A stretch of DNA of 33,377 nucleotides from Pseudomonadota bacterium (GCA_043813155.1 JBDRLK010000353.1:1-33377), one strand, 5' to 3'. Positions 3,295-25,197 are shown, counted from the stretch's first letter. Notes: generated by a model not told the origin, from the letters alone. A program made the numbers and translations.

Positions 3295-3885
3295 ATGAGC
3301 GCCGGCGATGAGATCACCCATATCCTTTCGACGCCTCCCCCGAGGCCTTTGAAGGCCGTCACAAGGGGCCCGGCCTTCATAAAGGCGGTCGCCTACCTGG
3401 CCGTAGCCGTTGTTTCCATCATCGTCGGGCTCGTTGATCTGTGGTATTACCTGTTCGCCCATTACCGCGAGCCCATTCTGGGCAACGAGATTCTCATGCT
3501 TTCCTATATTGTTTTCATCCTGTCCATCGGCGGGTTTGTTTTCTTCTGGTCCACGAGCTTCATGAACATATACTCGATTTACCTGTTCAGGAAAGGAAAC
3601 CTCAGGCCCGCGCGGGTCGAGAAGGCCACCATGCAGGAAAAGTCCGGGCGGGCAATGTTTGTCGTGAACTGGGCTGTCGAGGAAGAAGGAAAGACAATCA
3701 AGGGCGCCATTTCGACTGCGGTCCCGGACATTGCGAATTTCCGGCAGGACGTGGCCGGGGGGGATACCATGTTCCTGCTCTCGTCGGGCAAAGATCTTGG
3801 AGACGCCATGCCCGTGGGGATGATGGGACTGAAGAGGACTGGCTGCTGTTCCCGTCGCTTGCCGTTCCTTTTCGCTTCAGCGTAA
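3295..3885 (+). CDS. hypothetical membrane protein (2 TM helices plus soluble C-terminal domain)
   Basis: 196 aa. Hydrophobic helices VAYLAVAVVSIIVGLVDLWYYLF and LMLSYIVFILSIGGFVFFW are followed by a charged soluble region. First ATG of the ORF, with a weak SD. Confidence 0.6.
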   Translation: MSAGDEITHILSTPPPRPLKAVTRGPAFIKAVAYLAVAVVSIIVGLVDLWYYLFAHYREPILGNEILMLSYIVFILSIGGFVFFWSTSFMNIYSIYLFRKGNLRPARVEKATMQEKSGRAMFVVNWAVEEEGKTIKGAISTAVPDIANFRQDVAGGDTMFLLSSGKDLGDAMPVGMMGLKRTGCCSRRLPFLFASA

Positions 3886-3935
3886 CGAGGGGGCTATCCA
3901 TTGCCTGGGCCCTGGTCTGCGCCTCCATTGCCGTG

Positions 3936-4382
3936 ATGGGCTTTACGAGCAGCCATTTCATCAATGAAAAGGTGCCCATGAAATTCGTCATTATTTCGTC
4001 CGGGGCGAGCCTGATTGCCGCCCTGGTGTTCTGGCTGGCGAGCAGGCGGGTCATGGCATGGTTCCGGCCCTCGTGGTACATGTGGACGGCGGGAATCTTT
4101 GTTTTCTCCTATTTCATGGTCCTTGGAGGGATCCGGGGACTGAACATGTGGCTGGACAAAGGCAAGCCGCACATTTATAAAACGCAGATCCTTCACCTGG
4201 ACGATTCTATTTTTCCCCAGCTTCAACGTTACGTGTACGTTCGCTCATGGAGGGAGGGCCGGGTAAAGGAAAAGATTCCCATATCCATGAGAACAGGGCA
4301 AGGCATGTCCCCCGGTGACGATGTTACGGTCGAAGTGCAGGACGGCTACTTCGACATGCCCGCAATAACCGGCCTGCGTTGA
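3936..4382 (+). CDS. hypothetical membrane protein (2 TM helices plus soluble C-terminal domain)
   Basis: Only the 3' part of ORF 3441..4382 looks coding (FVIISSGASLIAALVFWLA, WTAGIFVFSYFMVLGG, then a charged domain). ATG 3936 is the first ATG past the stop of the upstream gene. GTG 3933 is possible, so the start is uncertain. Confidence 0.5.
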   Translation: MGFTSSHFINEKVPMKFVIISSGASLIAALVFWLASRRVMAWFRPSWYMWTAGIFVFSYFMVLGGIRGLNMWLDKGKPHIYKTQILHLDDSIFPQLQRYVYVRSWREGRVKEKIPISMRTGQGMSPGDDVTVEVQDGYFDMPAITGLR

Positions 4383-4386
4383 AAAG

Positions 4387-4425
4387 GGCGCATGAAGAAA
4401 ACATGCGCACCGCAGCGCCGTTTTT
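4387..4425 (+). terminator. possible intrinsic terminator or protein-binding inverted repeat
   Basis: GCGCATG-N7-CATGCGC (4388..4394 / 4402..4408) is nested in GGCGC...GCGCC and followed by a T5 run at 4421..4425, just after the stop at 4382. Confidence 0.3.
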
Positions 4426-4517
4426 AGACGACAGGCGAGCCGGGAAGCTCACCCGGGTGCATGAAAACCGTATTCACCTGCTTGACCTGAAGCTGATTTT
4501 CCGGCCTGATTACGGAT

Positions 4518-4533
4518 TGGCATTAATTTTGCT
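4518..4533 (+). promoter_or_regulatory. sigma54-type (-24/-12) promoter
   Basis: TGGCAT-TAATT-TTGCT has GG-N10-GC spacing and matches the TGGCAC-N5-TTGCW consensus. It lies about 40 nt upstream of the ATG at 4572. Confidence 0.6.
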
Positions 4534-4571
4534 TTATCGCGAAGCGGAAAAACAGGGAGGACAGAACATCC

Positions 4572-5342
4572 ATGACCGTAAAAGGAGAAGTCCTTTTAAT
4601 TGACCGCGAGGACAGCGGGATCGAGGCGCATGCCGTTGCGCTGTCCAAAGCGGGGCACAGCGTGTCCTGCACGTTCAACGGCAAAGAGGCCATCAAGAAA
4701 CTATCCGAGCACACCGTCGACCTCGTTGTGTCGGACACCGGTCTGCCCGACACCGACGGCATCCTGCTCTTGAGATCGATCAAGGACATTTCAAAGGATA
4801 TATATGTTGTCCTGATGGGCGAATGGCCGACCATCGAATTCACGAAAACGGCCATGAGCATCGGGGCGTACGACGTGCTCTGCAAGCCCGTGGAGCCGGA
4901 AAAGCTGTGCAGGGTGGTGCAGTCCGTGATTGCCGCGCGCCGGTACCGGCTTTCACAGATTGCCCGGGACCCGGCAACGAGAGGCGAGAAGCCTTCGCCC
5001 GAATGCACCTATGACGACCAGGGGCTGTGGTCCCGCACGCTGCCTAATGGAACCGTTGAGATCGGAATGTCGGCGAGCGGCTGGGTGGCCAGCGGGAAAA
5101 TGGTGTACATCACGCTTCCCGAGGAAGGCGCGGTAGTAAAGGAATGCGATCTTCTTTTCGAGATTGTTTCGAGCTATGGAAAAATCGGACAGGTTCACAG
5201 GGTCCTGTCGCCTTTGAGCGGAACGGTGATCGAGGTGAACGAGAATTTCAATGCCGAGCTCGTCAGGGCTGTCTGCGACCCCTGCGGCGGCCGGTGCTGG
5301 CAGACCCCGATTTTGAAAATAACGGTGGGGGCCGGGCCTTGA
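4572..5342 (+). CDS. response-regulator receiver domain fused to a GcvH-like (lipoyl/hybrid-barrel) domain
   Basis: N-terminus: REC motifs LLIDRED, VVSD(55)TGLPDTDG and LCKP. C-terminus aligns with glycine-cleavage H protein (GTVEIGMS...VYITLPEEGAVV...SPLSGTVIEVNENFN), but the ESVKA lipoyl-lysine context is not conserved. SD GGGAGG lies upstream. Confidence 0.8.
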   Translation: MTVKGEVLLIDREDSGIEAHAVALSKAGHSVSCTFNGKEAIKKLSEHTVDLVVSDTGLPDTDGILLLRSIKDISKDIYVVLMGEWPTIEFTKTAMSIGAYDVLCKPVEPEKLCRVVQSVIAARRYRLSQIARDPATRGEKPSPECTYDDQGLWSRTLPNGTVEIGMSASGWVASGKMVYITLPEEGAVVKECDLLFEIVSSYGKIGQVHRVLSPLSGTVIEVNENFNAELVRAVCDPCGGRCWQTPILKITVGAGP

Positions 5343-5452
5343 ATCTTGAATTTTGACATGGTTTGTTATGAACTTTTTTCATAGCGGACTTTGAGGTATG
5401 AAAATAATTCATAGAAAATACACGGAAAATTCAAGATTCAAGGCCCGGCCCC
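5328..5452. repeat. 125-bp element bounded by a perfect 27-bp inverted repeat
   Basis: GGGGCCGGGCCTTGAATCTTGAATTTT (5328..5354) is the exact reverse complement of 5426..5452. The left arm overlaps the last codons and stop of the upstream CDS. The interior is AT-rich. Confidence 0.75.
5353..5413 (+). promoter_or_regulatory. candidate regulated promoter: TTGACA hexamer plus two TATGAA-N5-TTCATA palindromes
   Basis: TTGACA at 5353..5358. 17-bp palindromes TATGAActtttTTCATA (5367..5383) and TATGAAaataaTTCATA (5397..5413) have centres 30 bp apart. They lie 56-100 nt upstream of the REC-NuoE start. No convincing -10 was identified. Confidence 0.4.
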
Positions 5453-5468
5453 AACAAGGAGGTTTAAA

Positions 5469-6407
5469 ATGCAACCACAGGTACTAATCGTTGATGACCA
5501 GCTGTCAGTCGTCAAATCCTGGGAGGCCATCCTGTCGGAAACGGGCATTTCCGTCACCGGAACGCGGGATGGAAAGGAAGCCTGGCAGCAGTTCCAGAAA
5601 AAGAAGTTCGACGCGGTTATTACCGATATCAGGATGCCGGGCATGGACGGGATCGAGCTTTTGGAAAAGATCAAGAAAGCCGACAGGAAGGTCGAGGTCA
5701 TCGTGCTGACGGGCTACGGCTCAAAGGAGAATGTTACAAGGGCAACGGACCTTGGAGCCTACGATTTCATTTTAAAGCCTGTTTCACCGCGCGACATGGT
5801 CAACACGACCATCGGGGCGCTCGGCCGGAGGGGCTTTGAACGCAGCAGGTTCAAGCCCAGATGGCAGTGGCTCGTGCGGCCGGCCGACGTGGCCGCGAAA
5901 ATGAAGGCGGAGCTGGAGAAGGCCGAAAGCAGGCCCGCGCCTGAAATCCCGAAGGAGCACTTCGAGAAGCTCGATGAGATCATAGCAAAGTGGCGGGGCA
6001 AGCCTGGATGCCTGATCCCTGCGCTCCAGGAAGCCCAGGGCCTCATCGGGTATCTTCCGCCTGAAATCCAGAAGATCATCGCGGCGGGTCTCGATCTGCC
6101 GGCCAGCGAGGTGTTCAGCGTGGTGACCTTCTATGCCTTCTTCACCCTGAAGCCGCGAGGCAAGTTCAACATCAGGGTGTGTCTCGGCACGGCGTGCTAC
6201 GTGAAGGGAGGCAGAGATATCGTGGGCAAGATAAGAGAGGGCATGGGCATCGGCATCGGTGACATTACCGACGACATGAAATTCTCCCTCGAGGCCGTCC
6301 GGTGCCTCGGCGCCTGCGGCCTTGCGCCTACCCTGACCGTGGGCCAGGACGTTCACGGCAGGATCAACCCGGCCAAGACCATGGAGATATTCAAGCAGTA
6401 TGAGTAA
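5469..6407 (+). CDS. response-regulator receiver domain fused to NuoE/HydC-type thioredoxin-like [2Fe-2S] subunit
   Basis: REC: LIVDD(9,10), VITD(53)IRMPGMDG, VLTGYG, ILKP. C-terminal half: NuoE motifs IPALQEAQ, CLGTAC (Cx4C) and CLGACGLAP (Cx3C). SD AAGGAGG lies upstream. Confidence 0.9.
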   Translation: MQPQVLIVDDQLSVVKSWEAILSETGISVTGTRDGKEAWQQFQKKKFDAVITDIRMPGMDGIELLEKIKKADRKVEVIVLTGYGSKENVTRATDLGAYDFILKPVSPRDMVNTTIGALGRRGFERSRFKPRWQWLVRPADVAAKMKAELEKAESRPAPEIPKEHFEKLDEIIAKWRGKPGCLIPALQEAQGLIGYLPPEIQKIIAAGLDLPASEVFSVVTFYAFFTLKPRGKFNIRVCLGTACYVKGGRDIVGKIREGMGIGIGDITDDMKFSLEAVRCLGACGLAPTLTVGQDVHGRINPAKTMEIFKQYE

Positions 6408-6455
6408 CGGCGGCGTGGCAACATTGTCCCCGGGGCCGGCCCCAAAGGAGGCGCA

Positions 6456-6842
6456 ATGAAACTCAAAGACGTGATCGCGGAAATCGAGGGGAAAATGCTG
6501 TGCGGCGAGGAGCTGCTTTCTGCAGACATCGAGACGGTCATGGCATCGGACATGATGAGCGATGTCCTGAGGTACTCGAAACCGGGCTCCATTCTCGTCA
6601 CGGGCAACAAGAACGTCCAGGCCGTGCGAACCGTGCTCATCGCGGAGCTGCGCGGCGCGATCCTGATCAGGAACAAGGCCCCGGCAAGGGAAATCCTGGA
6701 GCTTGCGCAGGAGAACGGGATTTTCATCGCCCTGACCGGGCTGGACATGTTCGAGGTGTGCGGCAGGCTGTACGAGAGAATGAAAGCAGCGCCGCCGCAA
6801 ACAAAAAAGGAGGATCAATCCGGCAGCAGGGCGGAAGTGTAG
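6456..6842 (+). CDS. DRTGG domain protein (copy 1)
   Basis: 128 aa and a clear paralog of 8654..9004 (shared ASDMMSDV, GRLY). This is the architecture of small DRTGG proteins found next to hydrogenase-like sensor genes. SD AGGAGG. Confidence 0.75.
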   Translation: MKLKDVIAEIEGKMLCGEELLSADIETVMASDMMSDVLRYSKPGSILVTGNKNVQAVRTVLIAELRGAILIRNKAPAREILELAQENGIFIALTGLDMFEVCGRLYERMKAAPPQTKKEDQSGSRAEV

Positions 6843-6861
6843 AGGGGGGCCGGGCGCTGCG

Positions 6862-7398
6862 ATGAGGGATATTTACGTATTCGAACAGAAGTTTCCGATA
6901 ACGGGCGGAGATTTTACCAATGCGGGCATGGCGTCCGTGGAGGTGAAATCCATACTGAAAAAAACGGGAATCGATTCGAAGAATGTCAGGAGGATATCCA
7001 TCGCGGTCTATGAAGCGGAGATGAACGTCGTTCTGTACTCACGGCAAGGAGTGCTGACGCTGCTCGTGACGCCGGAGAGCGTTTTCATTGTTTTCCAGGA
7101 CGAGGGGGAGGGCATCGAGGATATCGCCATGGCCATGAGAGAGGGCTTTACCACGTCGGACGAGAAAATACGGGAGCTGGGCTTCGGAAGCGGCATGGGG
7201 CTTCCCAACATCAAGGGGAATGCCGACTACTTGAAAATCACCTCCACCATGAAGAAAGGAACGACGCTGGAGATGGGGTTCGACCTGACGGGGAGGATTT
7301 CGGAGTCCGATAAAGAGGAGACCAGGACGAGGTACGACATGGAAAACGATATCAACATGTATCTTTGGAAAAAGAAGGGGTACGTAGAGAAGACATGA
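6862..7398 (+). CDS. anti-sigma-factor-like Ser/Thr protein kinase (RsbW/SpoIIAB-type GHKL ATPase)
   Basis: 178 aa. Bergerat-fold boxes EAEMNVV (N), DEGEGI (G1) and GFGSGMGL (G2). No DHp/H-box. Confidence 0.75.
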   Translation: MRDIYVFEQKFPITGGDFTNAGMASVEVKSILKKTGIDSKNVRRISIAVYEAEMNVVLYSRQGVLTLLVTPESVFIVFQDEGEGIEDIAMAMREGFTTSDEKIRELGFGSGMGLPNIKGNADYLKITSTMKKGTTLEMGFDLTGRISESDKEETRTRYDMENDINMYLWKKKGYVEKT

Positions 7399-8657
7399 TC
7401 TCATTGCGAATAGACGCTGACAAGTGCAACGGGTGCGTGAAGTGCATGCACGCCTGCCCCACCAGGGCGTTGAGGGTGAGAGATGGAACAGCGGTTATTC
7501 TGGACGATTATTGCATCGACTGCGGCGAGTGCGTCACGGCGTGCGAGAAGAACGCGATCGTTCCCCTCATCGATACGTTCGAGGACTTTTTTCAGAAGTT
7601 CAAGTTCAAGATCGCGCTGCCGTCCCCCGTGCTGTATTCCCAGTTCGGCGGCACTGTTCAGCCCAACGACATTCTCGCGGCCATACGAAGCCTGGGTTTC
7701 GGCTGCGTCGTGGACGAGGCCTACATCTGCGAGATGGTCAGCTCCGTGATCAAGCACTACGCGGACAAGAACAAGTCCGGCTTCCCCTATATTTCGTCGA
7801 TGTGCCCCGTTGTCACGCGGCTGATCCAGATGAGATTTCACGACCTGATCCACGCCATCATCCCGCTCCAGTCCCCGAGGGAGATCACGGCCCAGGAGCT
7901 CAAGCGAAAGTACTCGAAAAAGCTGGGCCTTCCGGAAGAGGACATAGGCGTGCTCTACATAACGCCCTGCTCGGCGAAGATCAACGCGATCAAGGACCCG
8001 CCTGCGAGGAAGAAGTCCACCATCGACGCCGCCATGGCGATCAAGGACATGTACATGCGGATCGCCAACAAGCTGTTCACGATCAGGGACAGTATCACTG
8101 AAGATGACGAGATGTACATGAGGGCGAGCGGGCTCGGCATCAGCTGGGGCATGGTAGGAGGGGAGATAGCCAATTTCGACCACAGCGAGTGCATCGCGGT
8201 TTCCGGCATAAGGGACGTCATCAAGATCCTCGAGGACATAGACAGGGGAAGGTTTTCCAACCTGCGCTACCTGGAATTGAGGGCATGCAGGGAAGGGTGC
8301 CTGGGCGGCAACCTGAACGTGGAGGACCGCTACGTGGCGAGAATGAACCTGATACGGCTGGTGGACATGTTCGGCAGTACTCCCAAGTTCGACAGGGAAA
8401 AGCTGATGCGGACCCACCAGAGCTACTTCTCCTTTGAAAAAGAGCCTTCTCCCATCAGGGAGACCGAGGCTCCCCTCAACCGCAGGAGGGACACGGCCAT
8501 TGAAATGCTCAACAGGGTCATCGAGATCCACGGCAGCCTGAAACAGATCGACTGCGGGGCCTGCGGCTCGCCGGACTGCGCGACATTCGCGGAAGACGTT
8601 GTCCGGGAATACTCCACGCTGGACCAGTGTGTTTTCATCGGGAGGGACAAGAAATGA
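7395..8657 (+). CDS. [FeFe]-hydrogenase-like protein, sensory (HydS-like) type without PAS domain
   Basis: N-terminal 2x[4Fe-4S] ferredoxin motifs CNGCVKCMHACP and CIDCGECVTACE. H-domain motifs SSMCP (for TSCCP), TPCSAK (for MPCxxK) and ELRACREGCLGG (for ExMxCxxGCxxG). C-terminal CGACGSPDC-x16-C. The start was chosen at the ATGA overlap with the upstream stop. ATG 7365 is an alternative. Confidence 0.85.
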   Translation: MISLRIDADKCNGCVKCMHACPTRALRVRDGTAVILDDYCIDCGECVTACEKNAIVPLIDTFEDFFQKFKFKIALPSPVLYSQFGGTVQPNDILAAIRSLGFGCVVDEAYICEMVSSVIKHYADKNKSGFPYISSMCPVVTRLIQMRFHDLIHAIIPLQSPREITAQELKRKYSKKLGLPEEDIGVLYITPCSAKINAIKDPPARKKSTIDAAMAIKDMYMRIANKLFTIRDSITEDDEMYMRASGLGISWGMVGGEIANFDHSECIAVSGIRDVIKILEDIDRGRFSNLRYLELRACREGCLGGNLNVEDRYVARMNLIRLVDMFGSTPKFDREKLMRTHQSYFSFEKEPSPIRETEAPLNRRRDTAIEMLNRVIEIHGSLKQIDCGACGSPDCATFAEDVVREYSTLDQCVFIGRDKK

Positions 8658-9004
8658 AACTTCGTGAAATAATTGAAAAGCTTGATTTCAAGGTGGTCAA
8701 CGAATCCGACAACATGGACGTGAACATCAGGCGCGGGTATGCAAGCGACATGCTCAGCGATGTCATTGCCAACGTCGGGGCCGATGATGTCTGGATCACC
8801 ATCCAGGCCCACCAGAACATCGTGGCCGTGGCCGTGCTCAAGGGAGTCGCGGCGATCATCATAGCGAACAAGAGGAATATCAACCAGGAAACGATCGCAA
8901 AGGCTAAGAGTGAAAACGTGGCCCTCATGCTCAGCGAGTTGCCGGTTTTCGAGATCGCTGGAAGGCTGTACGACATGGGGATCAGGGGGATCACGGAGCA
9001 ATGA
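8654..9004 (+). CDS. DRTGG domain protein (copy 2)
   Basis: 116 aa from ATG 8654 (ATGA overlap with the upstream stop). Paralog of 6456..6842. Confidence 0.75.
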   Translation: MKLREIIEKLDFKVVNESDNMDVNIRRGYASDMLSDVIANVGADDVWITIQAHQNIVAVAVLKGVAAIIIANKRNINQETIAKAKSENVALMLSELPVFEIAGRLYDMGIRGITEQ

Positions 9005-9777
9005 GCGCATTGCGGGAGTTCAGGGCGGACCTGCACGTCCATTCCTGCCTCTCGCCCTGTGCGGACATATTCATGACGCCCGCGAGGATAGCGAAGCGCG
9101 CCCGGGAGGCCGGATTGGACATGGTCGCCATCTGCGACCACAATTCCGCGGAGAACGCTCCCTACGGCGTGAAGGCCTGCGAGAGGTTGGAAGGGCTGAG
9201 CTTCCTGCCCGGCCTGGAAATCACGTCGGTGGAGGAAGTTCACGTCGTGGCGCTTTTCGCAGGCATCGCTGGCGCGCTGAAAATGCAGCGGGTTGTTTAC
9301 GACAAGCTGACGAAGGCGCCCAACGACAGCGACATGTACGGCGACCAGATCATCGTAAACGAGGACGACGAGGTGGAGGGCTTCAACGGCAGGTTGCTGA
9401 TCGGCTCCGTGGACATTGATTTGAAATCCCTGGTGGATCAGATTCACCGGCTGGACGGCATCGCCATTGCCGCGCACATAGACAAGACGTCGTTCGGGGT
9501 CGTGGGCCAGCTCGGGTTTATCCCCGAGGACGTTGACTTCGACGCTGTCGAGCTGTCCAGGTACGTGACGGACCGCAGCGAGGACTGGGAGCGGGAGGCG
9601 CAGAACAATTATTTCATGGGCCGCAGGTTTCCGATCCTGTTTTCCTCGGACGCCCACAGGCTCGAGGAAGTGGGAAAGCGAAGAACGATGTTTTTACTGA
9701 AATCGCCCGGGTTCGAGGAAATCAGGATGGCGCTCAAGGAGGTCGGCGGAAGAAAAGTACAGGCCCGGGAGACCTGA
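9001..9777 (+). CDS. PHP-family phosphoesterase
   Basis: 258 aa. PHP metal-ligand motifs DLHVHS, CDHNS, GLEITS, AAHIDK and SSDAH. ATGA overlap with the upstream gene. Confidence 0.85.
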   Translation: MSALREFRADLHVHSCLSPCADIFMTPARIAKRAREAGLDMVAICDHNSAENAPYGVKACERLEGLSFLPGLEITSVEEVHVVALFAGIAGALKMQRVVYDKLTKAPNDSDMYGDQIIVNEDDEVEGFNGRLLIGSVDIDLKSLVDQIHRLDGIAIAAHIDKTSFGVVGQLGFIPEDVDFDAVELSRYVTDRSEDWEREAQNNYFMGRRFPILFSSDAHRLEEVGKRRTMFLLKSPGFEEIRMALKEVGGRKVQARET

Positions 9778-9791
9778 AGGCTTCCGGCTCA

Positions 9792-9847
9792 GGGGCAGGG
9801 GAGGCTTTAGCCTCCCGGTTCAAGGGTAGGGGAGGCTTTAGCCTCCC
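9792..9847. repeat. two tandem REP-like hairpins
   Basis: GGGGAGGC-TTTA-GCCTCCC at 9798..9816 and again at 9829..9847 (the second preceded by GGGTA). Confidence 0.75.
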
Positions 9848-9864
9848 GTAAACAAAAAAGTCAA

Positions 9865-10416
9865 ATGGAAGATCTGTCGCTGCACATACTCGATATCATG
9901 CAGAATTCCGCGGAGCATGGCGCGGACACAATCGTTCTGCGAATCGAGGAGAACGCGGGCGACGACTTGCTCACGATCTCGATCCTGGACAATGGATCGG
10001 GAATGGACGAGAGCGCGGCGGCCAGGGTGACCGACCCGTTCTACACGTCCAAGGACAAGAGGGTCGGGCTCGGCGTCCCCCTGTTCAAGCAGGCGGCGCT
10101 GGCCGCGGGAGGCAGCTTCTCGATCGACTCGCAGGCCGGGAAGGGAACCGTGATCGAGGCGAGCTTCGACTATTCGAACATAGACCGCCAGCCCCTGGGC
10201 AATGTGGTGGACACGGTGATTTCCATACTCATCGCCTATCCCCATCTGCGGATTGTCTATACCCATGTGAAGGACGGGCAGGAGGCGGCCTTTGATTCCG
10301 AAGATTTCATGGAGCGCGCGGCAACGGCCGAGGGCGGGACCGCGGAGTACGCCGTGCTCTCCCTGATGAAAGGGGAATGGGAAAGCAGGCTCGGCGAAAT
10401 AGGCGCCGGCGAATAA
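9865..10416 (+). CDS. stand-alone GHKL (histidine-kinase-like) ATPase domain protein
   Basis: 183 aa. ILDIMQNSAEHGA (N box), LDNGSGMDE (G1), RVGLGVPLF (G2). No DHp/H-box or sensor domain. This resembles the small ATPase found between nuoE- and nuoF-like genes of bifurcating hydrogenase operons. Confidence 0.75.
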   Translation: MEDLSLHILDIMQNSAEHGADTIVLRIEENAGDDLLTISILDNGSGMDESAAARVTDPFYTSKDKRVGLGVPLFKQAALAAGGSFSIDSQAGKGTVIEASFDYSNIDRQPLGNVVDTVISILIAYPHLRIVYTHVKDGQEAAFDSEDFMERAATAEGGTAEYAVLSLMKGEWESRLGEIGAGE

Positions 10417-10428
10417 TGCCCCGCCGGG

Positions 10429-10480
10429 CAGGGGAGCCTTCAGGCTCCCCTGCTTCGGGAGGCTAAAGCCTCCCCTACCC
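10429..10480. repeat. REP-like hairpin pair
   Basis: CAGGGGAGCC-TTCA-GGCTCCCCTG (10429..10452) and GGGAGG-CTAAAG-CCTCCC (10457..10474, the inverted orientation of the CTTTAG type), followed by CTACCC. Confidence 0.75.
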
Positions 10481-10511
10481 CCAAGGGGCTATAAACCACG
10501 GAGGACCAATA

Positions 10512-10898
10512 ATGGCGAAATTGAAGATTGACGACCTCGACAGGATCAAGAAAAAAATGAAGGGTCAGATCCAGATCAGGGAGGGTGAGCACAGGGTGAA
10601 ATTGACCATCCACATGGGAACCTGCGGCATTGCCGCGGGCGCGCGCCCCCTCATGACGAGGATGCTCAAGGAGCTTTCAGACCGCAACATCACCGATGTT
10701 CGCCTCACGAGCTCGGGGTGCGCGGGGCTGTGCAGCCAGGAGCCCATGGCCACGGTCGAGATCAAGGGAGAGGCGCCGGTGAAGTACATCTCCCTCGACG
10801 AGGATAAAATGGTGGAAATCCTGGAGAAGCATGTTATCGGCGGCCGGATCGTGGAAAAGCACATGCTGGCCATGGGCAGCGAAAAAGTCCACGTGTAA
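10512..10898 (+). CDS. small thioredoxin-like [2Fe-2S] ferredoxin-domain protein
   Basis: 128 aa. HMGTCGIAAGA and SSGCAGLCSQEP motifs typical of the Trx-like ferredoxins encoded in HydABC-type operons. Only three Cys are present (C38, C70, C74). Confidence 0.8.
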   Translation: MAKLKIDDLDRIKKKMKGQIQIREGEHRVKLTIHMGTCGIAAGARPLMTRMLKELSDRNITDVRLTSSGCAGLCSQEPMATVEIKGEAPVKYISLDEDKMVEILEKHVIGGRIVEKHMLAMGSEKVHV

Positions 10899-10915
10899 CT
10901 TATATCTTGAATGGT

Positions 10916-11167
10916 GTGCGGGGCTTTAGCCCCGCCGAAGCGGCCCTGAAGGGCCGCACTGCGGAACGGAATGTTGGTGTGCGGGGCTTTAGCCCCGCCG
11001 AAGCGGCCCAGAAGGGCCGCACTGCGGAACGGAATGTTGTAGTGCGGGGCTTTAGCCCCGCCGAAGCGGCCCAGAAGGGCCGCACTACGGAACGGAATGG
11101 TGTAGTGCGGGGCTTTAGCCCCGCCGAAGCGGCCCTGAAGGGCCGCACTACGGCACCGAATTTAGTG
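10916..11167. repeat. 4 x 63-bp tandem repeat, each unit a double hairpin
   Basis: Units start at 10916, 10979, 11042 and 11105. Each carries GCGGGGC-TTTA-GCCCCGC and GCGGCCC-TGAA-GGGCCGC within GTGCGG...CCGCAC. A few substitutions separate the units. Confidence 0.9.
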
Positions 11168-11197
11168 AAGAGCCAGCATTTCAAGGAGGACCAGAAA

Positions 11198-14100
11198 ATG
11201 CCGGAAGCAAAGTACAGGATAGAATGTCTCGTATGCGCGGGAACCAGCTGCGTCGCCGGGGGCTCGTTCGAGCTGAAAGGGGTGCTCGAAGAGTCGATCA
11301 AAAAATTCGAGCTCCGGGACGAGGTGAGGGTCACCACGACGGGGTGCAACGGGTTCTGCGCCGCGGGCCCGATCATCAGGGTCATGCCCGACGACGTGTT
11401 TTACCAGTTCGTCACCCCCGGGGACGTGGACAAGTTCGTGGAGGAGCATTTCATCAAGGGCAGGGTTTACAAGCCGCTGCTCTACGAGGAGGACGAGACC
11501 AGGCAGAAAGTCCCGATCATGAGCGACATCGGGTTCTTCAAGCACCAGACGCTGATCGTTCTTCGCAACAGGGGGCTGATCGATCCGGAGGTCATCGACG
11601 AATATATCGGCAGGGACGGGTACAGGGCCGTGGCCAAGGCGCTCACGCAGATGACGCCCGAGGACATCAGGGCGGAGATGAAGAAATCCGGCCTCAGGGG
11701 AAGGGGAGGAGCCGGCTTCCCCACGGCGCTGAAGTGGGAGTTCTGCGCCAAGGCGCAGGGCGATATCAAGTACATGCTCTGCAACGCGGACGAGGGAGAC
11801 CCCGGCGCGTTCATGGACCGCAGCGTGCTGGAAAGCGACCCCCACGCCGTTCTCGAGGGAATGACCATCGGCGCAAAGGCCATCGGCTCTTCGGAGGGCT
11901 ACATCTACGTGAGGGCGGAGTACCCGCTCGCGATCAAGAGGCTGCAGATCGCCATCAGGCAGGCGCTGGATTACGGCCTGCTCGGCGACAACATCCTGGA
12001 CACGGGCTTCAACTTCCACCTCGACCTGTACTTCGGCGCCGGCGCTTTTGTCTGCGGCGAGGAGACGGCCCTCATGCGCTCCATCGAGGGCAAGCGGGGA
12101 ACGCCGCGGCCCAGGCCGCCCTTCCCGGCGCACAAGGGGTTGTGGGACAGGCCGTCCGTCCTCAACAACGTGGAAACGCTGGCCAACGTCCCGCAGATCA
12201 TTCAGAACGGCGGTGACTGGTACGCGAGCCTTGGGACCGAGCGAAGCAAGGGCACCAAGGTCTTCGCCCTGTCGGGCGCGGTCCAGAACATCGGCCTGGT
12301 GGAAATCCCCATGGGCGCGTCCATACGCACGCTGGTCTATGACATCGGCGGCGGCGCCAAGGCGGGCAAGCAGGTCAAGGCCATCCAGATGGGCGGGCCG
12401 TCGGGCGGGTGCATTCCCGAGAAAATATTCGACACGCAGATCGACTACGAGGAGATACAGAAGACCGGAGCCATCATGGGCTCGGGCGGCGTGGTGGTCA
12501 TGGACGACACCACCTGCATGGTCGACCTGGCCAGGTTTTTCCTTGACTTCACTTCCGAGGAGTCCTGCGGCAAGTGCGTGCCCTGCAGGATCGGGACCAA
12601 GGTCATGCTCGATGTGCTGGACAAGATCATCGCGGGCAACGGCGAGATGGAAGACCTCGACAAGCTGGAAGACCTTGGCAGGGACATTGCCGCGGCAAGC
12701 CTTTGCGGCCTTGGCCAGACGGCGCCCAATCCCGTCCTTTCCACGCTCAGGTACTACAGGCACGAATACGAGGCCCACGTCAAGGAGCAGTACTGCCCGG
12801 CGGGCAAGTGCAAGCGCCTGTCGCCCACGCCTTGCCAGGCCGCCTGCCCCATCGGGTCGGACATCTCGAGCTACGTGTCGCTCATCGGGCACGGGCGGTA
12901 CAATGACGCGCTGCAGGTCATTCTCGAGGATAACCCGCTGCCCGCGTCCCTGGGCAGGATCTGCGTTCACAAGTGCGAGGAAGGCTGCAGGCGGGCGGAG
13001 GTCGACACGCCCGTCTCCATCTGCGCCCTGAAGAGGGTCGCGGTGGACAAGGTTCCCGGCTACGTGGACGACGTCGAGCCCTGCGCCATAAGGTTCGACG
13101 AGAAAGTCGCCATCGTGGGCGCGGGCCCGGCGGGCGTCGCGGCGGCCTACGACCTGGTCCGCTACGGGTACGGCGTGACGATTTTCGACATGCTGAAGAA
13201 GGGCGGGGGCATGCTCAGGGCCGGGATTCCAGAATACAGGCTTCCGAGAAAGACCCTCGATGCCGAGCTGGGGAGGCTCGTGAAGATGGGCGTAAAATTC
13301 GAGTTCGGTAAAAAACTGGGCAAGGATTTTTCGCTGGGCAGCCTGCGCAAGCAGGGGTTCAAGGCGATCTTCATGGGCATCGGCGCCTACAAGGGAATGA
13401 AACTGCGGCTGGAGGGAGAGGACGAGGCCGGGGGGATTACGGACTGCATCGAGTTTCTCATGGAAAACAATCTCAAGGGCCACAAGAAGGCGGGCGACAA
13501 GGTGCTCGTCATCGGGGGCGGCAACGCGGCCATGGATGCCGCCCGCGTCTCCATACGCGTGGGCAGCGACGTGCGCCTGCTGTACCGCAGGACGCGCAAG
13601 GAGATGCCGGCGAACCCGGCCGAGATCGAGGCCGCCATCGAGGAAGGCGTGAACATGGAGCTGCTGGTGCAGCCCGTGGCGCTGCTCACGTCGAGCGGCA
13701 GGGTAAAGGGCCTCAAGTGCATCCGCAACGAGCTGGGCGAGCCGGACAAGAGCGGCAGGCGCAGGCCCGTGGCCATCGAGGGCAGCGAGTTCGACGTGGA
13801 GGCGGACGCCATCATCACGGCCATCGGGCAGTCTCCCGACCTGAGCTTCATCGGCAGCGGCTCGGGAGAGTTCGAGCTCAGCAGGTGGGGCACGATCAAG
13901 GTCGACCCCGATACCATGCAGACGAGCCAGAAGGACGTGTTCGCGGCCGGTGACGCGGTGACGGGCCCGGCCAGCGCCGTCGAAGCCATGGGAGGGGGAA
14001 GGCAGGCGGCTCACTCCATCCACTGCTTCCTGAGGGGCTTGCCCTTTGGCGTGTACAAGCATGCCAAGCCCATGAAGTTCCCGGAGCGTGTTCCGGTCAG

Positions 14101-14260
14101 GGAGGGAGAGCTCGACGGTCTCGAGAAGCCGAAGATGCCCCACATGTCCGTCGGGAAGAGGTGCAAGTGCTTCGACGAAGTGGAGCTCGGCCTGGATGAG
14201 AAAACCGCGATCATGGAAGCGAAACGGTGTCTTCGGTGCGATCTCCAGGCGGAGGAATAG
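11198..14260 (+). CDS. NuoF/HydB-type flavoprotein (N-terminal Trx-like 2Fe-2S, FMN/NADH site, 4Fe-4S) fused to a GltD-like NAD(P)H-dependent FAD oxidoreductase
   Basis: The start was chosen at an ATG 7 nt after AGGAGGA. Motifs: CLVCAGTSC...GCNGFCAAGP; GRGGAGFPT; CNADEGDPGAFMDR; ESCGKCVPCRIG...SLCGLGQ. Then the GltD part: CPAGKC...CQAACP...ICVHKCEEGC, VAIVGAGPAGVAAAYDL, VLVIGGGNAAMDAAR, LLYRRTRKEMPA. 1020 aa. Confidence 0.9.
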   Translation: MPEAKYRIECLVCAGTSCVAGGSFELKGVLEESIKKFELRDEVRVTTTGCNGFCAAGPIIRVMPDDVFYQFVTPGDVDKFVEEHFIKGRVYKPLLYEEDETRQKVPIMSDIGFFKHQTLIVLRNRGLIDPEVIDEYIGRDGYRAVAKALTQMTPEDIRAEMKKSGLRGRGGAGFPTALKWEFCAKAQGDIKYMLCNADEGDPGAFMDRSVLESDPHAVLEGMTIGAKAIGSSEGYIYVRAEYPLAIKRLQIAIRQALDYGLLGDNILDTGFNFHLDLYFGAGAFVCGEETALMRSIEGKRGTPRPRPPFPAHKGLWDRPSVLNNVETLANVPQIIQNGGDWYASLGTERSKGTKVFALSGAVQNIGLVEIPMGASIRTLVYDIGGGAKAGKQVKAIQMGGPSGGCIPEKIFDTQIDYEEIQKTGAIMGSGGVVVMDDTTCMVDLARFFLDFTSEESCGKCVPCRIGTKVMLDVLDKIIAGNGEMEDLDKLEDLGRDIAAASLCGLGQTAPNPVLSTLRYYRHEYEAHVKEQYCPAGKCKRLSPTPCQAACPIGSDISSYVSLIGHGRYNDALQVILEDNPLPASLGRICVHKCEEGCRRAEVDTPVSICALKRVAVDKVPGYVDDVEPCAIRFDEKVAIVGAGPAGVAAAYDLVRYGYGVTIFDMLKKGGGMLRAGIPEYRLPRKTLDAELGRLVKMGVKFEFGKKLGKDFSLGSLRKQGFKAIFMGIGAYKGMKLRLEGEDEAGGITDCIEFLMENNLKGHKKAGDKVLVIGGGNAAMDAARVSIRVGSDVRLLYRRTRKEMPANPAEIEAAIEEGVNMELLVQPVALLTSSGRVKGLKCIRNELGEPDKSGRRRPVAIEGSEFDVEADAIITAIGQSPDLSFIGSGSGEFELSRWGTIKVDPDTMQTSQKDVFAAGDAVTGPASAVEAMGGGRQAAHSIHCFLRGLPFGVYKHAKPMKFPERVPVREGELDGLEKPKMPHMSVGKRCKCFDEVELGLDEKTAIMEAKRCLRCDLQAEE

Positions 14261-14276
14261 AGGAAGCGTGCGCCTG

Positions 14277-14350
14277 AAAATCGCATGGTGCTGCGGGCCT
14301 TCGGCCCGCCCGACAATCGCATGGTGCTGCGGGCCCTCGGCCCGCCCGAA
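14277..14350. repeat. 2 x 36-bp tandem hairpin repeat
   Basis: AATCGCATGGTGCTGCGGGCC(T/C)TCGGCCCGCCCGA occurs twice (TCGCATGG at 14281 and 14317). Each copy has the hairpin GCGGGCC-(T/C)TC-GGCCCGC. Confidence 0.85.
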
Positions 14351-14364
14351 ACACGAGGTGAGTA

Positions 14365-16959
14365 ATGCAAGACAAGAATGAAAACATGATGACGCTGAAA
14401 ATCGACGGCAAGGAAGTTTCGGTCCCCAGGGGCTCGACCATTCTCGACGCGGCGATCAAGGCGGGCGTCTTTATCCCCACGCTATGTCATGACCCGAGGC
14501 TCAAGCCGTTCGGCGCGTGCAGGATGTGCGTGGTGCAGGTCGAGGGGCGGGGGCCCAGGTTCGTCACGGCCTGCAGCACGCCGGCCGATCCCGACACCAA
14601 CGTGATCACGACGAACGAAAGGATAGACAAGGCGCGAAGGACCGTCCTCGAGCTCCTGGCCGTGCACCACCCCGTTGACTGCCCTGTCTGCGACGCGGCC
14701 GGGGAATGCGAGTTCCAGAACCTCACGGCCTCCCTGAGGGGCACGGACCGCAGGAGGTTTGGCGGCGAGGAAAAGAGGTACGTGATCGACCGGCGCAATC
14801 CTCTCGTGGAAAGAAACCTCGCGCGCTGCATTGGATGCGGAAAATGCGTAAGGGTCTGCACGGAAGTGCAGGGAACGGCGGCCATCGATTTTCAGCACCG
14901 CGGTTTCGAGACGGGCATCGGCCCGGCCTTCCAGGAGCCGCTGGACTGCGATTTCTGCGGCCAGTGCGTGGACATCTGTCCCGTGGGCGCGCTCCAGAAC
15001 AGGCAGTACAAGTACACCACGCGCTCGTGGCTGCTCAACAAGGTGCCCGCGGTCTGCTGCTTCTGCGGCGACGGGTGCTCCCTCGAGGTCGGCGTGGGGC
15101 AGAGAGGCGAGATCGTGCGCGCAAAGAGCCGCGCCGCCCTGGGGTTCAACGAGGGGAACCTGTGCCAGCGGGGCAGGTTCGGGCACGATGTCCTGACCAG
15201 CCCGGCCAGGATAAACGAGCCCATGATCAGGAAGGACGGCAGCCTCATGGCCGTGGGGTGGAAGGATGCGCAGGCCAAAGCGGCCTCGGAGCTGGACAGG
15301 ATAAAGTCGAAGCACGGCGAGGGGTCCGTCGGTTTCATGGTGGGCGGACGGGTGGACAACGAGTCGCTGCTGGTGCTTTCGCGGTTTGCGGGCGAGGTCA
15401 TGAAGTCCGGAAACATCGCGAGCACGACGATGCGCCGCTACCGGGACTGGATCGACACGGCCCGCGAGGTCTGGGGCGTCGCGCCGCCCGCCATGGCCCC
15501 GGCCCGGGCCCTCGAGTCCGACCTGATCCTGGTCCTGGAATCGGAGATCAACGCCACGAACCCGCTCACGTGGATCAATATCCGCAAGGCGCAGATGCAG
15601 AGGGAGGCGGCGCTGGTCGTGGCGGACAGCAGGCGGACCAAGACGGGCTGGCGCGCGGGGAAATTTTTCGCCGTCGCGCCGGGAGGCTCGACCGAGCTTC
15701 TGCTGCGGGTTGTCGCGTCCATGGTGATCAAGGGTCTCGTGGACAGGGGCAAGCTGGGAGCCGTCGAGGGGTTTGACAAGTTCACGCGCGAGGCATCGGC
15801 GGCAAAGTCGGCATTGACCGAGGGCATCGAGCACACCGACGTCGGCTGGCTCGCCAACGCGCTGGCCGGGGCCGAGAACCCGCTCATCGTCCTCACGCTC
15901 GACTCGATGGAGAACATGAAGTCGAAGCCTCTCGTCAGGGCGGCGGCCGACCTCATGGTGCTCCTGGGCAAGGGCCCGGAGAACATCATGGTGCCCATGC
16001 CCGAGGCGAACATGCGGGGGCTCGTGGACAGCGGCCTTGCGGCCGGCGAGGGCGCCCGGGACGCGGCGCTTTTCATGAAGGATATTTCGGACGGAAAAAT
16101 CAAGGCGCTTTACGTGATCGGCGACGATCCGCTCTCGCGGCTGCCGGACCCGGCGGCCGTGGAAAAGGCTTTGGCGAGCCTCGAGCTCCTCGTGGTCCAG
16201 GACATCGTGCTGGGCCCCACGGCCAACATGGCCGACATTATCCTTCCGTCGGCGGGCTGGAGCGAGCACGAGGGGAGCTTCACCTGCTCGAGCGGCGTGA
16301 TCCAGGCTTTTGACAGGGCCGTCAATCCCGTGGGCGAGGCTGAAGCGGACTGGAAGATAATCAGCGGGATCAGCGCCAGGATGGGCTTTGATTTCGGTTA
16401 TAAAACAGTTGAGTCGATACGCAAGGATTACCTGGAGAAGTGGTACCCGGGTAAAAAGATCCTCAAGCCCGGCCTCTTCTCGTACGCGGAGCCGGGGCCT
16501 GCCGGGGAAGCCAAAGAGCCGGCAACGGGCAAGTTCATCGAGACGGGGTTCAAGGCAGCGCAGGCCACGCTCATCGCAAAGGAGCTGCAGCTCCAGACCG
16601 GGCCCATGCGCGGCCACAGCGGCGTCCTGTCCACCTACTCCGCGGCCATCACCTCGGTGTTCGGGGAGCCGAGGGCGCTCATCAACCCCGCCGACGCAAA
16701 AGCCCTTGGCGTGGAGGACGGCGGCAGCGTCAACGTCAAGTCCACGGCCGGCGACATCAGCGTGCGCGTGAAGGTGGACCACGAGATCCGCAAGGGCGTT
16801 ATTTTCATCCCCGCGCATTTCAGCGAGCCGCCCGTTCTGAGCCTGGTTCCGCCCGACGCCTACGCCGGCGGCGCGCCGGTCAAGGTCACGGTCACGCCCT
16901 TCAAGCTGCCGGCCAGGGCCTGCGAGGCCGCCGCCGCGTCCGCCGTATCCTCGAGCTGA
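14365..16959 (+). CDS. NuoG/formate-dehydrogenase-alpha-like Fe-S/molybdopterin-fold subunit lacking the Cys/Sec-His catalytic motif (SfrA-like)
   Basis: 864 aa. N-terminal 2Fe-2S (CHDPRLKPFGACRMC...C), His-ligated cluster HHPVDCPVCDAAGEC, 2x4Fe-4S (CIGCGKCVRVC, CDFCGQCVDICP) and a Mo-domain 4Fe-4S (CCFCGDGCS...C). Where Fdh has ...CCARV(U/C)HGPS..., this protein reads NIASTTMRRYRDW. There is no in-frame TGA. Confidence 0.85.
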   Translation: MQDKNENMMTLKIDGKEVSVPRGSTILDAAIKAGVFIPTLCHDPRLKPFGACRMCVVQVEGRGPRFVTACSTPADPDTNVITTNERIDKARRTVLELLAVHHPVDCPVCDAAGECEFQNLTASLRGTDRRRFGGEEKRYVIDRRNPLVERNLARCIGCGKCVRVCTEVQGTAAIDFQHRGFETGIGPAFQEPLDCDFCGQCVDICPVGALQNRQYKYTTRSWLLNKVPAVCCFCGDGCSLEVGVGQRGEIVRAKSRAALGFNEGNLCQRGRFGHDVLTSPARINEPMIRKDGSLMAVGWKDAQAKAASELDRIKSKHGEGSVGFMVGGRVDNESLLVLSRFAGEVMKSGNIASTTMRRYRDWIDTAREVWGVAPPAMAPARALESDLILVLESEINATNPLTWINIRKAQMQREAALVVADSRRTKTGWRAGKFFAVAPGGSTELLLRVVASMVIKGLVDRGKLGAVEGFDKFTREASAAKSALTEGIEHTDVGWLANALAGAENPLIVLTLDSMENMKSKPLVRAAADLMVLLGKGPENIMVPMPEANMRGLVDSGLAAGEGARDAALFMKDISDGKIKALYVIGDDPLSRLPDPAAVEKALASLELLVVQDIVLGPTANMADIILPSAGWSEHEGSFTCSSGVIQAFDRAVNPVGEAEADWKIISGISARMGFDFGYKTVESIRKDYLEKWYPGKKILKPGLFSYAEPGPAGEAKEPATGKFIETGFKAAQATLIAKELQLQTGPMRGHSGVLSTYSAAITSVFGEPRALINPADAKALGVEDGGSVNVKSTAGDISVRVKVDHEIRKGVIFIPAHFSEPPVLSLVPPDAYAGGAPVKVTVTPFKLPARACEAAAASAVSSS

Positions 16960-17153
16960 CGGCCCTGCCGGTCACGAAAATGCATCCGGGTACATTCAGG
17001 AGTGCAGGAAGTCCAATGACTTTCAGAACATGGATGGCATCGTACAGGGATGGCATGGCTATTTCTGTCCACGACAGGAATGAATGGACCGGGAGCCTGA
17101 GGGCTCGCGGCCGCACGGGATATCGACCGGCACCGGCAATTGGAAAATCCAGG

Positions 17154-17182
17154 TTGATTAAATTCCTTTTCGACTTCATAAT
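17154..17182 (+). promoter_or_regulatory. candidate sigma70 promoter
   Basis: TTGATT (17154..17159), a 17-nt spacer, then CATAAT (17177..17182). The -10 ends 8 nt before the ATG at 17191 and there is no SD. Confidence 0.35.
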
Positions 17183-17190
17183 CATTGTTG

Positions 17191-25085: not shown

Positions 25086-25094
25086 CGTTCTTCT

Positions 25095-25197
25095 CCCCCG
25101 ACGGGTAGGGGCGGCTTTAGCCGCCCGTTTCCCCCGACGGGTAGGGGCGGCTTTAGCCGCCCGTTTCCCGGGAGCCTAAAGGCTCCCCTACCCGGGG
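25095..25197. repeat. 2 x 36-bp tandem REP-like hairpins plus a third inverted hairpin
   Basis: CCCCCGACGGGTAGGGGCGGCTTTAGCCGCCCGTTT at 25095 and 25131, then CCCGGGAGCCTAAAGGCTCCCCTACCCGGGG. Confidence 0.85.

Follow-up and report, generated by a model that had tools for sequence, protein, structure and literature searches.

The locus described here raises the question of what is made by an operon in which the genes of a NuoEFG-like oxidoreductase, one of whose subunits carries its own receiver domain (REC), are interrupted by genes for a [FeFe]-hydrogenase-like protein and for kinase- and phosphatase-like proteins. It was found in a 33,377-nucleotide stretch of DNA from a Pseudomonadota bacterium (GCA_043813155.1, JBDRLK010000353.1:1-33377), hereafter the window, where positions 4572-16959 hold eleven genes on the + strand whose domains were assigned with Pfam. 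We propose, with moderate confidence, that they encode a soluble Nfn-like enzyme of the Bfu family which would balance the redox state under two layers of post-translational control, one through receiver domains and another through the hydrogenase-like protein HydS and the genes around it (the cassette). The whole case rests on comparative sequence evidence. The genes, with their lengths in amino acids (aa) and Pfam E-values, are the following:

4572-5342, + strand: REC and GcvH-like domains (REC-GcvH-like), 256 aa; Response_reg 2.5e-19, GCV_H 1.7e-09
5469-6407, + strand: REC-NuoE (BfuC, with an N-terminal receiver domain), 312 aa; 2Fe-2S_thioredx 7.8e-45, Response_reg 6.5e-32
6456-6842, + strand: DRTGG protein 1, 128 aa; DRTGG 6.6e-10
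6862-7398, + strand: RsbW/SpoIIAB-like GHKL ATPase, serine-kinase-like, 178 aa; HATPase_c_2 4.9e-07
7395-8657, + strand: HydS, [FeFe]-hydrogenase-like protein of group D (M2e, TamHydS-type) by its sequence, 420 aa; Fe_hyd_lg_C 3.8e-29, Fer4 (2x[4Fe-4S]), PF04060
8654-9004, + strand: DRTGG-like protein 2, 116 aa; DRTGG 1.4e-4, below the Pfam cut-off (22.1 against 25.2 bits)
9001-9777, + strand: PHP-family metal-dependent phosphoesterase, 258 aa; PHP 5.8e-07, PHP_C 4.8e-07
9865-10416, + strand: stand-alone histidine-kinase-type CA domain, 183 aa; HATPase_c 2.7e-14
10512-10898, + strand: HydD-like small thioredoxin-fold protein, 128 aa; weak 2Fe-2S_thioredx match, 2.5e-3
11198-14260, + strand: NuoF-GltD (BfuB), 1020 aa; domains by Pfam, as given below
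14365-16959, + strand: NuoG-MopB (BfuA), 864 aa; Fer2_4, NADH-G_4Fe-4S_3, Fer4_Nqo3, Molybdop_Fe4S4, Molybdopterin, Molydop_binding

An initial annotation, made from the sequence alone, had described eleven co-directional genes with these domains, the central five of them tightly coupled. The Pfam annotation of the open reading frames (ORFs) confirmed the gene content, and the junctions from the first DRTGG gene to the PHP gene consist of one 19-nt gap (between the DRTGG and kinase-like genes) followed by three ATGA overlaps. A HydA or formate dehydrogenase (Fdh) partner in the same transcript had been named as a refuting finding; neither a HydA nor a catalytic Fdh was detected in the operon or in the whole 33-kb window by Pfam, motif and alignment checks. 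Hydrogenase maturase genes (hydE/F/G) are likewise absent from the 33-kb window. A promoter and terminator scan of 4300-17400 gave counts equal to the shuffled level, and Rfam gave zero matches in the window at the gathering threshold.

By homology, the enzyme is assigned to the Bfu (HydABC/NfnABC) family and, within it, to the NAD(P)H/ferredoxin oxidoreductase type; this and the lack of a HydA support the earlier suggestion of an NADH/NADPH/ferredoxin oxidoreductase that is no hydrogenase. In BfuB, an N-terminal thioredoxin-like domain (PF01257 match; the B2 site), with CAGTSC and CNGFC motifs in the translation, precedes a NuoF part (Complex1_51K 5.5e-45, NADH_4Fe-4S 4.7e-34) that corresponds to the FMN/NADH site and the B1 [4Fe-4S] cluster. 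Residues 4-541 align end to end with the bifurcating BfuB 7t2r_B (E 5e-230), and the core matches NfnB (9bov_B) with an E-value of 3e-200. From residue 544 a GltD/NfnL-type module follows, with Fer4_20 (DPD_II) and Pyr_redox_2 domains providing 2x[4Fe-4S], FAD and an NADP(H) site, in such a way that residues 544-1015 match residues 102-567 of NfnA/StnC (9bov_A; E 4.5e-115), which form its NfnL/GltD-like FAD-NADP(H) module. The motif GGGNAAMD...YRR, which we take to be typical of NADPH-binding proteins of the GltD type, was read in the translation of this part. The C-terminal B3/B4 ferredoxin domain is missing, and the alignment to BfuB structures ends at about residue 541; in a normal BfuB the last ~60 residues hold the B3/B4 clusters, beside which ferredoxin binds in NfnABC. 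The fusion is common: at least 8000 candidate proteins matched NuoF-GltD at E <= 1e-20, and the best 120 listed share 52-75% identity over at least 90% of the query, nearly all with about 1000-1080 aa; by source name they come from Thermodesulfobacteriota, Aminicenantes, KSB1 and others. The fusion had initially been likened to Stn, an attribution that has to be corrected, as the GltD of Stn sits in the NuoG-like StnC (PMC7483475).

The best solved match of BfuA is FdsA of R. capsulatus (6tg9_A; E 2e-86). In the alignment, the segment CARVCHSP of FdsA, which contains its catalytic Cys-His pair, faces TTMRRYRD of BfuA, with Arg in place of Cys and Tyr in place of His. The pair is also lost in five relatives of BfuA. 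This bears out the description of BfuA as an Fdh-like subunit without the catalytic Cys/Sec-His; a role as formate dehydrogenase was ruled out on this basis, and formate chemistry is not expected of BfuA. Nor does BfuA contain an Fe_hyd_lg_C domain, and it lacks the H-cluster motifs TSCxP, MPCxxK and MxCxxGCxxG. Such a lack of a catalytic site is not unusual, because the equivalent Fdh-like domain of C. saccharolyticus NfnA is already known to be pterin-free and is regarded as an evolutionary remnant.

The first of the proposed control layers concerns the receiver domains (loci of other genomes are given below as L and a number). The REC-NuoE fusion is widespread, real and probably phosphorylatable, because both domains occur in its relatives and the phospho-acceptor residues are invariant: D9, D10, D53, T81 and K103 are kept across 22 aligned relatives, as are the ligands of the [2Fe-2S] cluster C1 (C238, C243, C279 and C283). 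An assembly artefact, which had been named as one of the findings that would refute the system, is contradicted by an independent contig ~94% identical to the window (L004) and by the 120 relatives listed, all of which have both domains; these belong mostly to Nitrospirota/Thermodesulfovibrionales and deltaproteobacterial lineages. With all phospho-acceptor residues present, the suggestion of phospho-control through the receiver of NuoE was strengthened.

The five operons inspected (window, L001/L002, L004, L005 and L006) all have a REC-GcvH-like gene immediately before REC-NuoE; L006 additionally has, directly upstream of the pair, genes for a HAMP histidine kinase and for a lone REC. Behind the REC pair, Nitrospirota have a NuoF of the plain bifurcating type and a NuoG-MopB without the Cys, and in L053 (Zhuqueibacterota) REC-NuoE occurs together with the cassette. 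The GcvH-like domain is very divergent; a Lys at the lipoyl position is present in the window's clade (YGKIG) and absent in Nitrospirota and other members, and a lipoylated GcvH as the third substrate was set aside on this ground. A phmmer search with this domain against 1.84 billion representatives, which is insensitive for judging family size, gave 25 matches at E <= 1e-3, about five of them with the length of the REC fusion. A single-sequence AlphaFold2 model of REC-GcvH-like had a mean predicted local distance difference test score (pLDDT) of 34 and was unusable.

Between REC-GcvH-like and REC-NuoE the window carries a palindromic element of ~115 nt (5310-5470) with 45-nt arms that are 82% complementary, folding as RNA at -76 kcal/mol (z = -9.5). 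Its 3' arm spans the ribosome-binding site and the start codon of REC-NuoE. The element is missing in the ~94%-identical L004, where both genes are 11 nt apart, a difference that points to a MITE-like insertion with a possible effect on how REC-NuoE is translated.

The second layer would be centred on HydS. Compared with the features given for group D in PMC8163306, HydS agrees in every one and is by sequence a group D (M2e) protein: it has two N-terminal [4Fe-4S] motifs and no PAS domain; the H-cluster residues C137, C192, C298, C302 and K195 are invariant among 16 aligned relatives; the proton-relay Cys is replaced (SSMCP), by Met here, by Thr in most aligned relatives and by Leu or Phe in the rest; the position of Met353 is a Thr (ITPC); and the C-terminus shows an exact Cx2Cx4Cx16C motif (CGACGSPDC...16...C). 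The earlier description of the cassette as H2-sensor-like agrees with the placing of HydS in this group of putative sensors. TamHydS of Thermoanaerobacter mathranii, a group D protein with low turnover and high affinity for H2, has been proposed as a sensor, and its gene lies upstream of a true HydABC and is flanked by an AraC-type regulator (PMC8163306). A 2024 paper calls the function of group D undefined, and a 2026 study of TamHydS states that its partners must be identified to understand the signalling mechanism. The closest match of the window's HydS in a set of genomes from 185,579 species is 46% identical.

In order to compare the neighbourhoods of HydS, an alignment of its relatives was searched against this set, with one genome per species, and the loci of the best 80 of 577 relatives were taken. 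The six-frame ORFs of all loci were searched with domain queries cut from the window, resulting in 86 loci with a group-D-like HydS. HydS sits behind the RsbW-like gene in nearly every locus covering the upstream side. DRTGG protein 1 is encoded directly upstream of the HATPase_c_2 gene in most loci covering that side, whereas L018, L021, L079, L082, L085 and L087 have the two as one fused gene; the position of the DRTGG-like gene 2 behind HydS is kept in most loci. The best solved relatives of the 178-aa ATPase are anti-sigma F factors, SpoIIAB (1til; E 3e-4), and those of the 183-aa ATPase in the Protein Data Bank (PDB) are the CA domains of YycG, ZraS and KinB (3sl2; E 5.6e-07). The latter protein has no DHp/HisKA domain, and resembles the "hisK" of Bfu operons by position and domain. 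The PHP protein has generic PDB relatives only, and Pfam showed no DNA-binding domain in any cassette gene.

The HydD-like protein had been called a small ferredoxin, a label that has to be reduced to three Cys and a HMGTCGIAAGAR motif, (nearly) invariant among 48 homologues, with an invariant His; TSGCAGLC is also found. If the protein binds a cluster, its coordination would be unusual. The gene occurs without the cassette in L005. In the Bfu operon of A. mobile, the hisK and hydD products were not present in the purified holoenzyme, and for this reason accessory, non-structural roles would fit the hisK- and hydD-like genes here.

The cassette is a separable module. In L001/L002, which are syntenic with the window (SdhA, DUF2505, a hypothetical gene, REC-GcvH-like, REC-NuoE, NuoF-GltD and NuoG-MopB) and whose NuoF-GltD is 65% identical, nothing lies between NuoE and NuoF and there is no cassette. 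The cassette is present in L004, with ~94% DNA identity over its length, and in L007 and L091 (NuoF-GltD 75% and 73% identical) as far as these short contigs extend. In L090, of Thermodesulfobacteriota type, it is split, with DRTGG, PHP, ATPase and HydD-like genes upstream of NuoF-GltD and DRTGG, RsbW-like and HydS genes downstream, and next to it are Rnf genes, together with an SfrB-like protein and a fusion of NuoG-MopB with NuoE. The order in WOR-3 and in one related genome is NuoE, cassette, HydD-like, NuoF-GltD, and then a short NuoG N-terminal protein and Glu_synthase. The initial annotation had treated receivers and H2-sensor-like cassette as one system, and this did not hold: L001/L002 keep the receivers without the cassette, and in Nitrospirota the REC pair goes with a plain NuoF.

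Both BfuB and BfuA genes were captured on the same strand in 49 of the 86 HydS loci, the rest being too incomplete to judge. Their partners were a NuoG N-terminus fused to an HdrA-like part (28 loci, five of them with NuoF-GltD), short or mid-length NuoG N-terminal proteins (10 loci; five followed by Glu_synthase and one by a separate GltD), NuoG-MopB with a separate GltD (5 loci), a Stn/NfnA-like BfuA (4 loci), and the window's combination, found in the window itself and in L090 (2 loci). A prototypical HydA was found in none of the 86, and neither the window nor any of 89 loci contained an ORF combining at least two of the motifs of such a HydA. A search with the H-domain only returned HydS-like ORFs and one 687-aa fusion of H-domain and HATPase (L011), and no NuoG-like ORF. 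The earlier statement that such cassettes adjoin the NuoE/NuoF genes of HydABC hydrogenases has to be corrected, in that the cassette is not special to HydABC: no HydA stands in any of the 86 loci of this sample. TamHydS itself lies upstream of HydABC (PMC8163306).

Other arrangements were observed in these neighbourhoods. The commonest partner, a ~590-aa BfuA, joins the NuoG N-terminus to the C-terminal two thirds of HdrA (8rvu_a; E 1.7e-119). It stands beside most cassettes; a HydA identity was considered and ruled out, since it has no H-cluster motifs and matches HdrA residues ~245-650. NuoE, a HydD-like protein and either NuoF or NuoF-GltD accompany this BfuA, which is apparently undescribed and has no obvious third substrate (L013, L015, L016, L027, L029-L033, L040, L041, L046, L048, L049, L051, L056-L058, L062, L063, L067, L070-L073, L080, L083 and L084). 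In WOR-3, Aminicenantes and related genomes, Glu_synthase (PF01645) stands behind a block of NuoE, cassette, NuoF(-GltD) and short NuoG (L008, L009, L010 and L081, also L043 and L060), preceded in L008-L010 by glutamate dehydrogenase and an NtrC-type two-component pair; these loci may encode a Bfu-type glutamate synthase. In two other contigs of Thermodesulfobacteriota type, L090 (1-15335) and L003 (4824-13039), NuoF-GltD has next to it an SfrB-like fusion of RnfB with GltD and a triple fusion of NuoG, MopB and NuoE, and the block of L090 lies directly behind Rnf genes.

Compared with known systems, the enzyme resembles NfnABC/Stn of S. ovata, C. saccharolyticus and T. sibiricus in its NuoE-, NuoF- and NuoG-like subunits, its GltD/NfnL-type module and its pterin-less Fdh-like remnant. 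It differs in that the NADP(H) module is C-terminal on BfuB, replacing the B3/B4 domain, whereas Nfn-Bfu has it inserted in BfuA, and in having a receiver domain on BfuC and a HydS cassette nested in the operon. Under the name "sub-type I BfuB", the NuoF-GltD fusion was reported in 2024 from Hydrogenedentota hydrogenases (PMC11406978), with NuoF, DPD_II (2x[4Fe-4S]) and a FAD/NAD(P) domain in the place of B3/B4 as here, and archaeal hybrid hydrogenases have a HydB with a glutamate-synthase domain (PMC11216029). Those complexes contain hydrogenase subunits or a BfuA with an H-cluster, unlike the window, whose BfuA has no H-cluster and a dead pterin site. As in Geobacter SfrAB, where the NuoG-like SfrA is paired with the GltD-like NADPH subunit SfrB (PMC7483475), a NuoG-like protein is here paired with GltD, whereas the SfrB-like proteins of related loci (RnfB-like FeS plus GltD) lack a NuoF part; their genes stand beside NuoF-GltD in L003 and L090, and there is none in the window. 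The initial annotation also describes the Fdh-like subunit of SfrAB as Cys-less. BfuA shares with FdsABG of R. capsulatus the order of FeS and pterin domains, and differs in the Arg-Tyr that replaces the Cys-His of FdsA.

HydS is like TamHydS in its N-terminal 2x[4Fe-4S], its four H-domain Cys, the loss of the relay Cys, the hydroxyl residue (Thr) for Met353, the C-terminal Cx2Cx4Cx16C, the absence of PAS and the neighbouring histidine-kinase-like ATPase, and unlike it in that Met497 corresponds to Arg here and to Leu in TamHydS. Another difference is that TamHydS lies upstream of a true HydABC, and no HydA accompanies HydS here or in the 86 surveyed loci. The cassette recalls RsbW/SpoIIAB partner switching, with a SpoIIAB-related HATPase_c_2 protein, a phosphoesterase and small adaptors, yet DRTGG proteins and PHP take the places of STAS, PP2C, sigma factor and DHp; the resemblance points to a possible working mode and not to family membership. 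In REC-NuoE, a canonical REC is fused to the protein that it would control, as in two-component receivers with enzymatic output.

From these comparisons we infer complex formation, substrates, H2 sensing and phospho-control as follows. REC-NuoE (BfuC), NuoF-GltD (BfuB) and NuoG-MopB (BfuA) would form one complex, an Nfn-like redox valve through which electrons pass between NADH, NADPH and ferredoxin. A two-component input would phosphorylate the REC of BfuC and that of its REC-GcvH-like partner, and phosphorylation of BfuC would alter its gating movement or its docking in the cleft between BfuA and BfuB; in NfnABC, movement of the C-terminal domain of BfuC gates bifurcation and its N-terminal domain lies in the A/B cleft. 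HydS, with a low turnover, would report H2 or the redox state and would signal through the RsbW-like ATPase, the histidine-kinase-type ATPase, the PHP protein and the two DRTGG proteins, modulating the enzyme by a circuit akin to partner switching. As a tentative extension, group D HydS with its DRTGG, RsbW-like, PHP and kinase-ATPase partners could be a portable H2- or redox-responsive post-translational switch for Bfu enzymes generally (Nfn-like, HdrA-like and glutamate-synthase-linked), combined here with the receiver on BfuC.

Several points weigh against this proposal. No biochemical characterisation was found for any NuoF-GltD, REC-NuoE or cassette protein. It is uncertain which molecule is the third partner and in which direction electrons flow, because the ferredoxin-binding B3/B4 domain of NfnABC is replaced. 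In REC-GcvH-like the receiver Asp and Lys are kept, and the conserved Thr is a Met in the window's clade. For the two ATPases, neither a STAS-type substrate nor a DHp/His domain was found, and the cassette, with HATPase_c_2, DRTGG and PHP only, contains no PP2C. The survey is biased, as its sample consists of the closest relatives of the window's HydS, and the complete lack of a HydA next to 86 HydS genes would also fit a HydS that is itself the hydrogenase in these complexes.

This last point leads to the main rival, in which HydS would be the catalytic H2 module of a split multi-subunit bifurcating hydrogenase, feeding the H-cluster-less BfuA, perhaps via the HydD-like protein, and coupling H2 to NAD(H), NADP(H) and/or ferredoxin, in such a way that ATPase, PHP and DRTGG proteins would merely tune the complex. 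HydS is indeed the sole H-cluster protein in the loci, it conserves all H-cluster ligands, and TamHydS does turn over H2 (PMC8163306). Separate catalytic subunits are known in Type 2/3 Bfu enzymes (HytA of C. autoethanogenum, NiFe-HydABCSL), the commonest partner is the HdrA-like BfuA, without an obvious third substrate of its own, and HydS is nested between bfuC and bfuB in the window and in WOR-3. The regulatory reading was nevertheless favoured, because a close syntenic relative keeps the enzyme genes without HydS, because the cassette also accompanies enzymes with third-substrate modules of their own, including Stn/NfnA-like ones, whose characterised homologues are complete three-substrate enzymes, because HydS trails the RsbW-like gene among kinase- and phosphatase-like genes and does not adjoin BfuA, and because group D enzymes are slow, high-affinity catalysts. 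The loss of the relay Cys, Met here and Thr in most aligned relatives, and the position of TamHydS upstream of a real HydABC also speak against catalysis by HydS, which we consider unlikely and less economical than regulation.

Cassette and enzyme could also be mere neighbours, the former controlling transcription or a hydrogenase encoded elsewhere and leaving the Bfu enzyme unregulated, as the NtrC-type regulators and histidine kinases beside many cassettes and the AraC-type regulator flanking TamHydS would allow. This is rendered quite improbable by the place of the cassette inside the enzyme operon, between bfuC and bfuB and with overlapping stop and start codons, by the same-strand BfuB and BfuA in 49 of 86 HydS loci (the others being incomplete), by an adjacency that survives reshuffling of the gene order, as in the split around NuoF-GltD of L090, and by the lack of a DNA-binding domain in the cassette genes. 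Still less probable, and in our view very much so, is that GltD serves as the equivalent of a glutamate-synthase small subunit, passing electrons of NADH and ferredoxin to a GltB-type synthase encoded elsewhere, as in a Bfu-type glutamate synthase. WOR-3 and related loci do have Glu_synthase (PF01645) behind the same block, with glutamate dehydrogenase before it in L008-L010; however, there is no Glu_synthase gene in the 33-kb window, in L001/L002 or in L090, the BfuA of the window is of the long NuoG-MopB type and Glu_synthase loci have the short form, and the closest similarity of the GltD part is to the module of NfnA that binds NADPH.

The operon also contains tandem repeats between its genes, two of which bracket BfuB (Tandem Repeats Finder, TRF):

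10912-11161, no strand: tandem hairpin repeat, non-coding; TRF period 63, 4.0 copies, 95% matches
14271-14351, no strand: tandem hairpin repeat between BfuB and BfuA; TRF 36 bp x 2.2

The first, the largest array (4 x 63 bp, with paired GC hairpins), creates a false N-terminal extension of 97 codons in NuoF-GltD. The mechanical ORF of 10907-14260 is overlong, its start at 10907 being wrong because 10912-11161 is this non-coding array, and the true start is the ATG at 11198, preceded by AAGGAGG. Intergenic hairpin repeats are also found at 9784-9848 and 25094-25169, and further at 586-599 and 10459-10472. In their hairpins the loop is always TTTA and the stems covary (GAGGC/GCCTC, GGGGC/GCCCC and GCGGC/GCCGC), and the core motif is over-represented in the window, with 14 matches against 0.28 expected. 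They may be elements similar to repetitive extragenic palindromic (REP) sequences, or elements for mRNA processing or stabilisation between operon segments.

Upstream of the operon, at 3295-4382, lies the orthologue of a 362-aa membrane protein whose position is kept in L004 and L001; the window copy shows a frameshift at ~3816-3837 and is a pseudogene or the result of a sequencing error. Just downstream, 17185-18426 encodes a protein of 413 aa that is rich in Cys, hydrophobic at its N-terminus and marked by CNG(I/M)DDDCDTLCD(D/E)G repeats, and 20228-21229 is a 333-aa ORF with a repeat array of 12-bp period (20455-20645); Pfam matched neither of them. Encoded in the flanks are a succinate dehydrogenase/fumarate reductase flavoprotein (660-2408, - strand) and a methylmalonyl-CoA mutase (29618-31300, - strand), which suggest a syntrophic propionate degrader using the methylmalonyl-CoA pathway.

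The Bfu family, the NuoF-GltD "sub-type I" BfuB, the pterin-less Fdh-like remnant and the role of group D as putative sensor were already known. In the literature we found no description of group D cassettes being systematically associated with Bfu enzymes other than hydrogenases, none of a REC-NuoE/REC-GcvH-like pair and nothing relevant on a NuoE with a receiver domain. Neither was the combination of HydS cassette and REC pair in one operon found described, including the literature on Syntrophobacter NuoEF and glutamate synthase; no paper was found linking DRTGG with hydrogenase, and nothing relevant on HydS with Nfn or a serine kinase.

The neighbourhood pattern, which recurs across many phyla, names candidate partners for group D, which are the RsbW-like ATPase, the DRTGG proteins, PHP and non-hydrogenase Bfu enzymes, and makes this operon a compact test case for the role of the group. 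If the proposal is true, the receiver on the gating subunit BfuC would provide a first case of an electron-bifurcating enzyme controlled directly by phosphorylation, and if the cassette is a portable switch, a single redox valve would integrate the H2 level and a kinase signal at the protein level. In syntrophic propionate degraders, for which the coupling of H2 to the balance of NADH, NADPH and ferredoxin is central near the thermodynamic limit, such sensing of H2 would be physiologically meaningful.

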